Shown here one piece after another: positions 3,585 to 16,468 of a stretch of 64,000 nucleotides of DNA. Location of the stretch: IMG/VR virus record IMGVR_UViG_3300035208_008180, one strand, 5' to 3'. The notes under the pieces were generated by a model. That model had not been told where the DNA came from. It saw only the letters and a list, made by a program, of their open reading frames with translations, and made no database searches. Both the position numbers and the translations under genes were made by a program. The stretch is from a virus (Duplodnaviria; Caudoviricetes). Within the stretch, counting starts at the first letter, position 1. Each line of letters opens with the position of its first letter.

Positions 3585-4328
3585 ATGAATTTCAAACAAT
3601 GGCTAGAATCAGTAGGAATTATAGGCTCTGTACCCGAAGCTTTAAGCACTTTGGGGCTAAAACCAGGGGCATCTAAAGAAGAAATTGCAAAAGCATTTAG
3701 AGCAATGTCTATGCGACACCATTCTGATGTAGGCGGCTCTGATACTATACAAAAACGACTTAATGCTGCATTTGACCTGTTAAAGAGTCGTGATTTTCAG
3801 ACGGCTGGCGGTAGAGGACCAGAGTGGAATCCACCTGAACCTCCTAGATGGGATGGAAGCAATGGGCCGGGAGCACGTTGGGCTGCTTATCAACAAAGAA
3901 GAAATAATGATTTGCCACCTTGGCAAACAGACGAAAGATCATCTAATAACTCAGTTGGCGGCAGTCGCAAAAACATTAATTATTGCTTGAAGGAAATATA
4001 TGAAAAAGCAATGGAAAATGGCGGCAATGTTAAAAAATATACTTTTGACGCTTTTGATGGAAGATTTTTCAGAGGAATATTCACTGCTTATTGCAACCCA
4101 CAAACATTAGGCTTTGCTGGCGAAGTAATGGATGATTGGAATAGTAAGGGAGCTAATTCATACGAAACTTATGCGGTACTAGCATCAAGAGACAATTCTG
4201 CACTTCTTGTTCGGTTACGAGGAAAAGATGTGTCAAATATGCATATGGGCTGGGAATTTTCCAATGAAGATAGAAATAGTGAGCATTGGAGAAGAGAATT
4301 TAAAAAAGAATTAGATGAAATTCAATAG
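3585..4328 (+). CDS. J-domain (DnaJ-like) protein with HSD in place of HPD
   Basis: ALSTLGLKPGASKEEIAKAFRAMSMRHHSDVGG...LNAAFDLL; start refined to MNFKQWLE. Confidence 0.75.
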   Translation: MNFKQWLESVGIIGSVPEALSTLGLKPGASKEEIAKAFRAMSMRHHSDVGGSDTIQKRLNAAFDLLKSRDFQTAGGRGPEWNPPEPPRWDGSNGPGARWAAYQQRRNNDLPPWQTDERSSNNSVGGSRKNINYCLKEIYEKAMENGGNVKKYTFDAFDGRFFRGIFTAYCNPQTLGFAGEVMDDWNSKGANSYETYAVLASRDNSALLVRLRGKDVSNMHMGWEFSNEDRNSEHWRREFKKELDEIQ

Positions 4329-9191: not shown

Positions 9192-9263
9192 AGCTACTTA
9201 TTGGAATTACACCAATGCCTTCGCATTACGAGTGCGATATACTGCTGACTATACGAAAGTAGC
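9192..9263 (-). tRNA. tRNA-Thr(CGT), non-canonical T loop
   Basis: Acceptor GCTACTT/AAGTAGC; TCGCA-CTCGTAA-TGCGA; T loop TGTAATT. Confidence 0.8.
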
Positions 9264-11865: not shown

Positions 11866-11900
11866 AATAAACTTCCTTGTGTTTGTATCATCTTGCAGAG

Positions 11901-11976
11901 TAGCACCAGGGGGATTCGAACCCACCACTACCCAGTGTTTAAAACTGGTGACTTCTGCCAATTGGTCTATGGTGCC
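11901..11976 (-). tRNA. tRNA-Leu(TAA), short variable loop
   Basis: CCAGT-TTTAAAC-ACTGG; G1-U72; A73. Confidence 0.85.
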
Positions 11977-11981
11977 ATGAG

Positions 11982-12055
11982 TAGCGAGGAGGGGATTCGA
12001 ACCCCTACTGTCTGGTTCCTAAGACCAGTGCCGCTGCCAATTGGGCTACCTCGCC
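11982..12055 (-). tRNA. tRNA-Leu(TAG), short variable loop
   Basis: CTGGT-CTTAGGA-ACCAG. Confidence 0.88.
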
Positions 12056-12057
12056 AT

Positions 12058-12375
12058 TTATGATTGTTCTATATCCTGAACATCAACTCTTTTCCTAAGT
12101 TCTTTGAAAATTTCGTGTGCAGCTTCTTTTCCAGTTGTTGCAGCATCAAGCTTCTTTATCAATTCTGTTGTGCCTAATTTCCACACAGCATATTCTTCAT
12201 CGGTTTCACAGAGTATTAAATTCAGTTTACCAAACCGAACTACAGTCGAATGAGGATTGTCAGACAACCTTCGTAACGATTGTGCTGTTCCTGTGTTGAC
12301 TCGGATAACAAGGTCTACATCTGAGTTTGCGTTTGGCTTGCCGTAAGCTCTACTGCCCGTAATAAATGCGTTCAT
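12058..12375 (-). CDS. Minimal nucleotidyltransferase (MNT / Pol-beta family)
   Basis: FITGSRAYG-x5-SDVDLVI (GS...DxD motif). Confidence 0.8.
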   Translation of the reverse strand: MNAFITGSRAYGKPNANSDVDLVIRVNTGTAQSLRRLSDNPHSTVVRFGKLNLILCETDEEYAVWKLGTTELIKKLDAATTGKEAAHEIFKELRKRVDVQDIEQS

Positions 12376-12650
12376 TTTTTTACCTTGTCATCGTTCACTG
12401 GCCAATGCTTTCTGCCTTCTGAAACATGCTCTAATGCTTCTCGGATTATTTCAGGTGATTCCTCAATCTCAACAAAAGCCCACCCTGGCGGGCAATTGCC
12501 TACATTTTTCTTGGGAGATACCATCACCCCCAAGTGTTCGCCACAAGTTGCTAGCCCGCCACCAATCGATTTGAGAAATTCCGCATAACTGAGATTATCT
12601 GGAACTTCCAAATCATTCCCATGTTCATCCTTGCGACCAATGACTTTCAT
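12372..12650 (-). CDS. Hypothetical protein
   Basis: GGAG RBS before MKVIGRK. Confidence 0.55.
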   Translation of the reverse strand: MKVIGRKDEHGNDLEVPDNLSYAEFLKSIGGGLATCGEHLGVMVSPKKNVGNCPPGWAFVEIEESPEIIREALEHVSEGRKHWPVNDDKVKK

Positions 12651-12662
12651 TTTTTCTCCAAG

Positions 12663-12748
12663 CGGAAACGGAGGGAGTCGAACCCCCAAGGCTTTTTACA
12701 CTCATCTGTTTTCAGAACAGGTTTCGTCACCAATCGATTTGCGTTTCC
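12663..12748 (-). tRNA. tRNA-Ser(TGA) with C33
   Basis: Same V arm as Ser(GGA); CTGT-TCTGAAA-ACAG; G73. Confidence 0.75.
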
Positions 12749-12753
12749 GAAAG

Positions 12754-12827
12754 TAGCACCAGAAGGATTCGAACCTTCACTGAACAGTGTTTGAAACTGT
12801 TGCCGCTGCCAATTGGGCTATGGTGCC
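12754..12827 (-). tRNA. tRNA-Leu(CAA), short variable loop
   Basis: ACAGT-TTCAAAC-ACTGT. Confidence 0.88.
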
Positions 12828-12832
12828 ATAAG

Positions 12833-12906
12833 TAGCATCGGTGGGATTCGAACCCACAACCTCTACATTTTGAGTGTAGCGACTCTGCCAGTTGGTCTAC
12901 GATGCC
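12833..12906 (-). tRNA. tRNA-Leu(CAA), short variable loop
   Basis: CTACA-CTCAAAA-TGTAG. Confidence 0.88.
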
Positions 12907-12912
12907 AAAATA

Positions 12913-13608
12913 TCAAACAACCCCTAGTTGTGTCAGGATTGTCGCATGTTGCTCAGTCATGGTTGTCAGTTGTGTATTGAGGGATGCAAGTGATGCTTCC
13001 AAATCCGACTTCTCTGCCAGTATTACAGCATGCTGTTCTGTCAAGACTGCTAATTGTGCATTTAAAGATTCAAGAGATGCTTCCAAATCTGCTTTTTCTA
13101 TCAACAGTTCTTCCGCTGGTGTTTCTCCACTTGCATCAATGCCCGCATTTACAACCACCAGTCTTTCAGTCTTTGTTAGTATGTCAGCATTTATCAGGTC
13201 AATAGATGCTCCACTTGCATCAACGCTCGCACTTACAACTGCCAGTCTTTCAGTATTTGTTTGTATGCCAGGATTTATCGCATTTATTGCGGCAACAAGT
13301 TGTCGCAATTGATATTCTAATGAAAACAGTAATGCCATGCCCCCAACAACTTGAGCAGCTAAAGGGTGAGTATAAACCAATTCCCAAATATTATCAAAAA
13401 ATTCAACTTTGTCCTGATCTGCACCCGGATATAGTTGTTTTGTGGTGTAATTGTAGGGTCTAAAAACAATTGTCAATGGTTGTTTTGTAGCATCAACGTT
13501 TATCGTTTGCACGTTAAATGCCACAATATAAAGCTCGTTATACACAGCCTCAACAGTGGCAGGAACTATTAGTGGGCTTGGATTAGGAATCAGAGGTAAA
13601 TCAGCCAT
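12913..13608 (-). CDS. Coiled-coil protein with two pairs of internal repeats
   Basis: TERLxVVxAxxDASG twice and EKxDLEASLxSLNxQL...TEQHA twice. Confidence 0.7.
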   Translation of the reverse strand: MADLPLIPNPSPLIVPATVEAVYNELYIVAFNVQTINVDATKQPLTIVFRPYNYTTKQLYPGADQDKVEFFDNIWELVYTHPLAAQVVGGMALLFSLEYQLRQLVAAINAINPGIQTNTERLAVVSASVDASGASIDLINADILTKTERLVVVNAGIDASGETPAEELLIEKADLEASLESLNAQLAVLTEQHAVILAEKSDLEASLASLNTQLTTMTEQHATILTQLGVV

Positions 13609-13622
13609 ATTTTTTCCTTTGT

Positions 13623-13832
13623 TTAATTCAAATGTACTGTACCACGACCTTTGGTGGTTCTTACGATTTTTGTTATACCATCTTTTTCAACTTTTACAAT
13701 ACGAAGTGGATCACTTGGATACAAAGAGTCAAATGCGTCTACATAACCATCGCAATAAGCTCTTGTTTTATGCTCTATAAAAGATACTTTACGCCATCCA
13801 AGATCGCCACTGTTTCTCTCTACGTAATACAT
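13623..13832 (-). CDS. Hypothetical protein
   Basis: GGAG RBS before MYYVER. Confidence 0.55.
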   Translation of the reverse strand: MYYVERNSGDLGWRKVSFIEHKTRAYCDGYVDAFDSLYPSDPLRIVKVEKDGITKIVRTTKGRGTVHLN

Positions 13833-13845
13833 TTTTTTCTCCAAG

Positions 13846-13920
13846 TGCCACGAGCGAGATTCGAACTCGCACTGTCTAGTATCTCGGACTAGCGACTCCT
13901 ACCAATTGGTCTACCGTGGC
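13846..13920 (-). tRNA. tRNA-Leu(GAG), short variable loop, C33
   Basis: CTAGT-CCGAGAT-ACTAG. Confidence 0.8.
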
Positions 13921-13925
13921 GTACA

Positions 13926-14081
13926 TCACATATAATGATCTTGATCTTTTTCTCGCCAATATTCATCCTCTTTTTGCCGATACTCAGCATACTCTGCGTT
14001 TGTATAGTATTGATACGATCCACAGGCACACGGATTACAATTACATATTCTGCATACTGCTGCATTATCTATATCATTCAT
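13926..14081 (-). CDS. Small Cys-rich ORF (51 aa)
   Basis: MNDIDNAAVCRICNCNPCACG...; fills the gap between two tRNAs. Confidence 0.4.
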   Translation of the reverse strand: MNDIDNAAVCRICNCNPCACGSYQYYTNAEYAEYRQKEDEYWREKDQDHYM

Positions 14082-14104
14082 TATTATTTCTCGGGTGTGT
14101 AAAG

Positions 14105-14178
14105 TAGCGAGGAGGGGATTCGAACCCCTACTGGATAGTTCCTGAAACTATTGCCGCTGCCAATTGGGCTACCTCGCC
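14105..14178 (-). tRNA. tRNA-Leu(CAG), short variable loop
   Basis: ATAGT-TTCAGGA-ACTAT; body almost identical to Leu(TAG). Confidence 0.88.
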
Positions 14179-14184
14179 ATAAAG

Positions 14185-14262
14185 TGGCTGTGGCGGGTCT
14201 CGAAGCCGCAAAACATCACAAAGTTCTGGACTTTGCCGCTTTTCCGATTTGCGTACACAGCC
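14185..14262 (-). tRNA. Atypical tRNA-Leu(CAG): C33, 9-nt variable loop, T-stem mismatch
   Basis: Acceptor GGCTGTG/CACAGCC; CAAAG-TCCAGAA-CTTTG. Confidence 0.65.
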
Positions 14263-15030: not shown

Positions 15031-15123
15031 TGGGAAGTGACGGAATCGAACCGCTCAAAGTCATACCACCCCAAATTCTTTAACGACTAACAGATTTACA
15101 GTCTGCCTTGGGGAACACCTCCC
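15031..15123 (-). tRNA. tRNA-Tyr(GTA)-like RNA lacking a D arm, with an enlarged V arm
   Basis: Acceptor GGGAGGT/ACTTCCC-A; GCAGA-CTGTAAA-TCTGT; GGTTCGATTCC; only 10 nt between acceptor and anticodon stems. Confidence 0.75.
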
Positions 15124-15127
15124 ATTT

Positions 15128-15283
15128 TGGTTCTCAGTGTGTTATTACACCAAAGGCAAGAGCGACAATACACACTCTTTGCGACACCCAGTATTGTTCT
15201 TTCCAGGTGATTGCTTTTCGCCACGCAGCTAACGCTACCACTCTTTAAATGCTGGACACTCCTAATCCCACATCCTGAGAACC
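15128..15283 (-). ncRNA. Unknown ~156-nt multi-helix structured RNA
   Basis: Closing stem GGTTCTCAG/CTGAGAACC plus nested helices; spaced 3-4 nt from the flanking tRNAs. Confidence 0.65.
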
Positions 15284-15286
15284 AAG

Positions 15287-15368
15287 TGTGCCGAGCCGGA
15301 ATTGAACCGACAAGTCCCGAAGGAGTCTCGTTTACAGCGAGGTGGGCCTGCCAATGCCCAATCGACAC
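15287..15368 (-). tRNA. tRNA-Tyr(GTA)
   Basis: CTCG-CTGTAAA-CGAG; V arm with TTCG loop; A73. Confidence 0.9.
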
Positions 15369-16047: not shown

Positions 16048-16365
16048 CTATTCCTGTATTTGCTTGATAACCATGAAATGTTGTTTTTTGCCGATTCGAA
16101 TTATTCCCCATCCTGGCCAAATGAATTTAACCAGCGATTCAGGATCGGTTACTTTTTCGCCATTCCAAGACAAAGAACCTTCTTTAACTTTGCGTCTAAC
16201 TTCACTGATGCTTGGTAAGGCACCGCCATCAACACAAATCTGTGCTATTTTTCCATCCTGCACTGTTTTAGGACGCATCCACCACCACATGCTGGCAAAT
16301 GTTTCTTGACAAACAGCCTTGGGCTTGTTTAGTATTTCCCATAATTCATCAAATGTCAACATCAT
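16048..16365 (-). CDS. Stand-alone S4-like RNA-binding domain resembling the TyrRS C-terminus
   Basis: SISEVRRKVKEGSLSWNGEKVTDP...IIRIGKKQHF; GGAG RBS before ATG 16365. Confidence 0.7.
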   Translation of the reverse strand: MMLTFDELWEILNKPKAVCQETFASMWWWMRPKTVQDGKIAQICVDGGALPSISEVRRKVKEGSLSWNGEKVTDPESLVKFIWPGWGIIRIGKKQHFMVIKQIQE

Positions 16366-16379
16366 AATTTCTCCAAAAG

Positions 16380-16468
16380 CGGAAGTGACTAGAATCGAAC
16401 TAGCACTGGCTTTGACACCAGAACGGTTTAGCAAACCGCCGCAACAAACCAATATTTGCCTCACTTCC
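16380..16468 (-). tRNA. tRNA-Ser(GCT)
   Basis: GCGGT-TTGCTAA-ACCGT; long V arm; G73. Confidence 0.92.

Follow-up and report, generated by a model that had tools for sequence, protein, structure and literature searches.

We report a family of phage genes, likely tyrosine tRNAs, which lack a D hairpin, have a pseudoknotted core and are conserved in approximately 100 phage tRNA arrays. The member examined here is a 93-base gene in a giant-phage tRNA cluster, at 15031-15123 on the minus strand of the window, i.e., the whole 64,000-nt stretch of viral DNA that was analysed (Caudoviricetes, IMG/VR record IMGVR_UViG_3300035208_008180). It is likely a working phage tRNA-Tyr(GUA) with a non-cloverleaf core in which both helices of the pseudoknot are formed. 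Charging, decoding and the L shape are inferred, and no expression, processing, aminoacylation or structure-probing data stand behind the tRNA reading.

Bacterial and phage tRNAs are all assumed to fold as a cloverleaf whose D hairpin is local. If our reading is correct, the L shape can also be reached by another chain topology, and this pseudoknotted core is widespread and conserved. The family would also explain the apparent lack of tRNA-Tyr in many phage arrays, which would then reflect a blind spot of ARAGORN and the Rfam tRNA model. Such genes would be a natural means of asking which tRNA features TyrRS, RNase P, EF-Tu and the ribosome truly require, and the design is possibly a new scaffold for engineered orthogonal tRNAs. 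One copy lies unannotated in the cultured gut phage crAss001, making a bench test feasible.

Anatomy of the gene and its detection by standard tools

An earlier sequence-only reading transcribed this gene, claimed that its D hairpin is missing and pointed to CCCCAA as complementary to TTGGGG in the variable-arm loop. These claims held. The letters at 15031-15123 (minus strand) are identical to that transcription, and the acceptor and anticodon stems are separated by only nine bases, none of them locally paired. CCCCAA (15113-15108) is the perfect complement of TTGGGG (15074-15069), which the hairpin AGTCGT/ATGACT holds in its loop, with TGG directly after it. We refer to the pairing of these two strands, the second of which lies 36 nt downstream of the first, as helix X.

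Read 5′ to 3′ on the minus strand, the gene begins with the 8-nt acceptor strand GGGAGGTG (15116-15123), which pairs with 15032-15039; all eight pairs are kept in A1, our alignment of the subfamily to which the gene belongs. The connector TT (15114-15115) leads from the acceptor stem to helix X and corresponds to A1 columns 10 and 11, which hold T in 52/59 and 54/59 sequences, respectively. The helix X 5′ strand CCCCAA (15108-15113) occupies the D position and continues directly into the anticodon arm (15090-15107), which consists of a G followed by GCAGA-CTGTAAA-TCTGT. Its 5-bp stem covaries, the anticodon GTA is at 15097-15099, and the 7-nt loop has U33, G34-U35-A36 and A37-A38, with a purine at position 37. 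G15107 may pair with T15089 to give a sixth anticodon-stem pair (GU in 49 and AU in 8 family sequences).

The variable stem starts one base (a T) after the anticodon stem, with the 5′ strand AGTCGT (15083-15088) pairing with ATGACT (15059-15064). Its loop holds the A/U-rich linker TAAAGAAT (15075-15082), which is 4-10 nt long in the family and contains one nearly invariant A (A1 column 47, A in 57/59). This is followed by the helix X 3′ strand TTGGGG (15069-15074), which is supported by covariation as well as by its complementarity to 15108-15113, and by UGG (15066-15068), the proposed equivalent of the D-loop G18-G19, with a single T after it. The gene has a long variable arm with its loop engaged in helix X. 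As the variable hairpin encloses the 3′ strand of helix X in its loop, the two helices make a pseudoknot. Beyond the variable stem come the tail TTGA and the T arm (15040-15054), with a 4-bp stem GCGG/CCGT and the loop TTCGATT, which is canonical but was fixed by our search pattern. The gene ends with the acceptor 3′ strand CACTTCCC and the discriminator A73 (together 15031-15039, with A73 at 15031), and no CCA is encoded.

One sequence alone proves little, because its complementarity is only weakly beyond chance: a perfect 6-bp match between a 9-base connector and an 18-base loop has a chance p of approximately 0.013-0.026. For this sequence alone, the nested minimum-free-energy fold contains CCCCAAG/TTTGGGG and the 8-bp acceptor stem, drops the variable stem and has a z-score of −1.38.

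The expectation that standard tRNA finders would probably miss the gene also held. Of the tRNAs reported for the window, 17 by ARAGORN and 14 by Rfam at its gathering score, none is the gene at 15031-15123. With permissive settings, its best Rfam match was tRNA-Sec (24.6 bits against a cut-off of 47), and it scored below the 29-bit gathering threshold of the general tRNA model RF00005. The problem is shared by the family: ARAGORN called none of 74 isolated members, and only one element when given whole loci.

Covariation in two subfamilies

Relatives were collected by scanning viral contigs for a Tyr anticodon loop, a gap of 32-50 nt and a T loop. This gave 103 stretches, 100 of which (on viral contigs) share the gene's anatomy, in agreement with the earlier reading, which mentioned similar sequences in other tRNA arrays. 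They include 59 distinct sequences (this gene among them) with an 8-bp acceptor stem and 4-bp T stem, i.e., an 8/4 branch, which we call group 1. A second subfamily (group 2) has 11-12 distinct sequences with a normal 7/5 acceptor/T branch and U8-A9. Family members are 85-96 nt long. Because the search pattern prescribed both loops, their being conserved cannot count as evidence, and the census of the family is biased.

Alignment A1 contains the 59 group-1 sequences and was made with MAFFT without structural input. Its nested structure has 95.6% of cells paired, against 35-55% after sliding the partners by 1-3 columns, and none of 500 shuffles reached the observed value on any of five measures. 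Helix X covaries as strongly as the acceptor stem, with all six pairs varying on both sides and approximately 100% of cells paired. For example, the pair at columns 15-53 occurs as UA (38), CG (12), GC (4), AU (3) and GU (2), and another as AU (33), GC (12), CG (6), UA (6) and UG (2). Run unguided, RNAalifold predicted helix X and the 8-bp acceptor stem, plus the sixth anticodon-stem pair.

A1 also resolves the branch geometry. The sequence-only reading had divided the branch as 7/5 with a bulged T stem, and this failed: the gene has 8 bp (GGGAGGTG/CACTTCCC) and 4 bp (GCGG/CCGT). The eighth acceptor pair covaries (GC in 45, AU in 9, UG in 4), which supports the 8/4 branch, and the 7/5 alternative is unpaired. 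The T stem is weak across the family, with three firm Watson-Crick or wobble pairs and one more that is mostly U.U or else G.U.

MAFFT misplaces the 3′ strand of the variable stem in group 1, so this stem was analysed separately by script. It is 4-6 bp long, and by our own reading of the listing all 16 sequences that depart from the consensus TGCC in the 5′ strand have a compensating 3′ strand. Variants include TGCC/GGCA, TGGC/GCCG, TGTC/GACG, TGAC/GTCA and TACC/GGTA, as well as the AGTCGT/ATGACT of this gene. Alignment A2 comprises 12 sequences of the 7/5 subfamily with the pseudoknot written explicitly. It has 97.8% of cells paired, and both helix X and the variable stem show compensatory pairs (35-66 and 36-65 in the variable stem).

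The sequence-only reading had named covariation of CCCCAA with TTGGGG among homologues as a check on its proposal, and the check held, with compensatory changes in both A1 and A2. Its proposal of a pseudoknot from the variable arm held as well: RNAalifold finds helix X without guidance, and the variable-arm stem that encloses the helix X 3′ strand also covaries, which is why we regard the pseudoknot as real. Linker lengths are narrow (4-10 nt ahead of the 3′ strand, UGG plus 0-3 nt behind it) and fit one compact fold. That both helices form at the same time is inferred from the covariation of each and has no structural test behind it.

The other conserved positions are those of a tRNA. UGG is invariant in 59/59 group-1 and 12/12 group-2 sequences; the D-loop-like TGGT of the earlier reading thus held in part, the conserved motif being UGG and not UGGU. 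A73 is present in 59/59 relatives, with CCA encoded immediately after it in 46/59. On the window's own contig, CCA is absent from every tRNA gene examined.

Distribution and array context

The window gene scores 72.4 bits (E = 2.6e-19) with a covariance model derived from the 8/4 alignment. The model found no second copy in the same genome, its next-best match there being the host tRNA-Sec, and a search of this genome and 60 relatives gave a single copy only. With the same pattern, a scan of one genome per species (185,579 species) found true members in only five records, all bacterial: two Phycisphaerae metagenome-assembled genomes (MAGs), Neorhodopirellula pilleata (two copies), Tateyamaria omphalii and a Neisseriaceae MAG. 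N. pilleata Pla100 is a cultured planctomycete in which a single contig (NZ_SJPM01000014.1) carries tRNA arrays of 22 and 26 genes (loci L112 and L120), each including a rewired Tyr gene whose UGG is replaced by CGG.

Among phages with cultured or curated records, BLAST with a 7/5 member as query showed that 31 Kehishuvirus (crAss-like) records carry the gene, which is annotated in none of them. In the Bacteroides phage crAss001 (MH675552.1), where it is 95 nt long and lies at about 4141-4235, it fills an unannotated 170-nt gap between tRNA-Lys and tRNA-Phe. The paper describing this phage reports 25 tRNAs covering 17 amino acids (PMC6235969), and a Tyr tRNA was neither annotated in crAss001 nor found there by ARAGORN. 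The same genome has two odd tRNA-like genes with unreadable anticodons: a 144-nt gene at 96453-96596 (minus strand; L142:154-297) with a big insert at the anticodon-arm site, and another at 101478-101568 (minus strand; L144:129-219) with approximately 25 nt between its anticodon-stem strands.

No cultured phage gave a full-length match when the window element and two group-1 members served as BLAST queries. Partial matches in Aeromonas phage CC2 and Synechococcus phage BUCT-ZZ01 were rejected as family members, being ordinary unannotated Tyr tRNAs. Separately, one phage tRNA array that holds a rewired Tyr gene also contains a GOLLD RNA (L053:4568-5028, plus strand; RF02032, 229.5 bits).

Array context suggests what the genes do. 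All 93 of 93 elements share the strand of the nearest tRNA, often lying only a few bases from it. Among the 34 arrays for which ARAGORN called 15 or more tRNAs, a normal Tyr tRNA occurs in only 3, but any one of the other 19 amino acids has a tRNA in 23-33 of them. From this context we infer that the rewired gene takes the place of the absent Tyr tRNA. Arrays with both kinds of Tyr gene usually have them side by side, as in the window and at loci L028, L032, L040 and L089. In the window, the normal tRNA-Tyr(GTA) is at 15286-15368, 162 nt upstream of the rewired gene, so the latter is not needed here for Tyr supply. Neither a credible ORF nor an Rfam match is present in the spacer of approximately 160 nt between them (15124-15285, minus strand).

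The contig that contains the window is 340 kb long and has a tmRNA of its own as well as 65 tRNA genes, all encoded on one strand. Its genes include a tail sheath, a ribonucleotide reductase and SbcCD-like genes, and we conclude that the contig is a jumbo myophage which was binned with a bacterial genome. No TyrRS catalytic domain was found on the phage contig, and the bacterial bin has a TyrRS (contig C8). The phage tmRNA, located outside the window (G000:C200:132589-132933), encodes the tag ANDYVALAA, and that of the bacterial bin encodes ANNNSYALAA.

Several other features of the window were noted. Seven tRNA-Leu genes of 75-79 nt were called by ARAGORN at 11900-14262 (minus strand); they are too short for a long variable arm and hence would have a class I shape. 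Rfam found a tRNA at 9192-9263 (minus strand, 54.1 bits) that is not in the ARAGORN list. The 138-aa ORF at 16048-16464 (minus strand), 0.9 kb upstream of the rewired gene, matches the S4-like C-terminal domain of TyrRS (PF22421, 28.1 bits, with the cut-off at 27); a catalytic domain is absent. We considered this ORF as part of the mechanism and dropped it, as the Pfam match is marginal and the other family loci have no homologue.

Proposed fold, rival explanations and known systems

In the fold that we propose, an 8-bp acceptor stem would be followed by a 2-base connector and then by a 6-base strand running straight into the anticodon stem, with the partner of that strand downstream in the loop of a short variable-arm hairpin, just ahead of the invariant UGG. 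The upstream strand of helix X, which passes without a break into the anticodon stem's 5′ strand, would act as D-stem positions 22-25, which do likewise in a normal tRNA. The downstream strand and UGG would act as positions 10-19 (the D-stem 5′ strand and G18-G19), heading away from the anticodon stem. With the 6 bp of helix X stacked on the 5-6 bp of the anticodon stem, there would be 11-12 pairs in the stack. This equals the normal 5 pairs, 26.44 pair, 4 pairs and two tertiary layers, which would put the GG in register for the T loop. UGG is predicted to dock there, producing the L shape. The L shape and GG/T-loop contact claimed by the sequence-only reading thus remain inferences, as do tyrosylation and decoding. 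The RNA would be processed like the neighbouring tRNAs and would read UAY codons, and because the phage contig has no TyrRS catalytic domain, charging by the host TyrRS is inferred.

A return to the cloverleaf by excision or permuted-gene processing was also considered and rejected: the acceptor strands are already at the gene ends, and no single excision moves the helix X 3′ strand and UGG ahead of the helix X 5′ strand.

The strongest challenge to function is that the RNA is tRNA-like and does not decode, serving instead as a decoy or sponge for a host nuclease, TyrRS or modification enzyme, or as a regulatory RNA from the tRNA transcript. The window gives this some encouragement, with a normal tRNA-Tyr 162 nt away and a free-standing TyrRS C-terminal-like domain encoded 0.9 kb upstream, and host defences that deplete tRNA-Tyr are known, e.g., retron-Eco7 PtuAB (PMC11555353). 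However, in most arrays the rewired gene is the sole gene with a Tyr anticodon while 19 other amino acids are covered, A73 and CCA are retained, and the U33-G34-U35 and A36-A37-A38 features found in Tyr tRNAs that decode are still in place in the anticodon loop. The TyrRS-like domain, moreover, is absent from other family loci. We therefore consider a non-decoding role very unlikely. It is also very unlikely that the two helices are alternatives and do not coexist. The active form would then be either a three-way junction with a long anticodon arm, as in D-armless mitochondrial tRNAs, or an ordinary class II tRNA in which the D region is floppy, and the other pairing would serve as a folding intermediate or switch. 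In its favour, the single-sequence nested minimum-free-energy fold takes helix X and omits the variable stem, and covariation cannot prove simultaneous formation. Against it, both helices covary in both subfamilies, linker lengths are as narrow as a single compact fold predicts, and the invariance of UGG is understandable only with the helix X 3′ strand fixed at the D position.

A decayed tRNA-Tyr pseudogene, or mere chance complementarity, is practically ruled out. The modest single-sequence statistics (p of approximately 0.013-0.026, z-score −1.38) and rejection of the gene by ARAGORN and the Rfam tRNA model would agree with it. They are outweighed by more than 70 distinct relatives in which each helix shows compensatory changes, by the invariance of UGG and A73 and the presence of CCA in 46/59, and by the persistence of the design across very different phages, including cultured crAss-like phages.

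Why a phage would carry a pseudoknotted tRNA-Tyr is a more speculative matter. Published work describes hosts that defend themselves by depleting tRNA-Tyr and phages whose own tRNA-Tyr genes counteract this (PMC11555353), so evasion of host enzymes that attack tRNA-Tyr is a possible, untested reason for the rewired design. A bolder version, which we think unlikely as a whole, is that phages evolved this knotted way of folding a working tRNA and keep it for conflict with the host, its core being invisible to nucleases and defences that sense the normal D arm and core while TyrRS, EF-Tu and the ribosome still accept the knotted tRNA-Tyr.

The closest ordinary counterpart is the class II tRNA-Tyr(GUA) of bacteria and phages (the RF00005 cloverleaf), e.g., the window's own gene at 15286-15368. 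The two are alike in the GUA within a CUGUAAA loop, A73, a variable hairpin right after the anticodon stem, the TTCGAnT T loop and placement in tRNA arrays. The rewired gene differs in having no D hairpin: its D-helix strands are split around the anticodon arm and pseudoknotted with the variable-arm loop. It also differs in that its subfamily has an 8/4 branch, and in that it falls under the Rfam threshold and is missed by ARAGORN.

Allo-tRNAs of the (8/4) type, the (8/4) tRNA-Ser and tRNA-His of bacteria and phages, and tRNA-Sec (Mukai et al. 2017, PMC5389517) share with group 1 a 12-bp acceptor branch split 8/4, although a 9/3 split also counts in that class. They also share a 6-bp D-type helix instead of a 4-bp stem with tertiary layers, a long variable arm and an occurrence in phage tRNA clusters, and tRNA-Sec is the gene's best Rfam match. 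However, allo-tRNAs and tRNA-Sec retain an ordinary D stem-loop with a long stem and tetraloop (PMC5389517), whereas the rewired gene has no local hairpin. Their identity is Ser, Sec, His or Cys (with G73 or U73), whereas the rewired family is Tyr with A73 in 59/59. The second rewired subfamily differs from allo-tRNAs further, having a normal 7/5 branch.

Lack of a D hairpin is also known from D-armless mitochondrial tRNAs, e.g., metazoan mt-tRNA-Ser(AGY) and nematode mt-tRNAs (PMC7609411). In these the arm is replaced by an unpaired loop, the molecule is shortened and the canonical D/T-loop contacts are lost (PMC7609411). The rewired strand is instead fully paired to a distant partner, the GG and canonical T loop are kept, and the gene is longer than a normal tRNA. 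Plant-virus tRNA-like structures such as that of TYMV also use a pseudoknot to achieve an aminoacylatable tRNA shape; the TYMV-type pseudoknot builds the acceptor stem at the genome 3′ end, and these structures are not known to act as free decoding tRNAs. We found no description of a tRNA with the rewired topology in the literature searched (open-access papers and preprints only), which agrees with the earlier reading, where no structural description was known, and a 2020 review of non-canonical tRNAs does not list it (PMC7609411).

It is possible that the rewired scaffold is portable to other anticodons, a suggestion that rests on one UCU copy (L069:7970-8054, plus strand; identical to L092:3316-3400, minus strand). 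This copy has the rewired anatomy with a UCU anticodon loop (CTTCTAA) and G73, and it includes an 8-bp acceptor stem, a CCTCT/GGAGG long-range pairing, A-UGG and a TCAT/ATGA variable stem, scoring 48.4 bits with the family model. A pattern scan for its relatives returned chance matches only. Screening of ARAGORN-missed genes with a T loop and closed acceptor stem yielded odd tRNAs, none of the rewired architecture. Three tRNA-like genes missed by ARAGORN (L012:1557-1654, L019:9670-9768 and L054:3433-3531) combine a TAT (Ile) anticodon loop and a normal D arm with a long variable hairpin.
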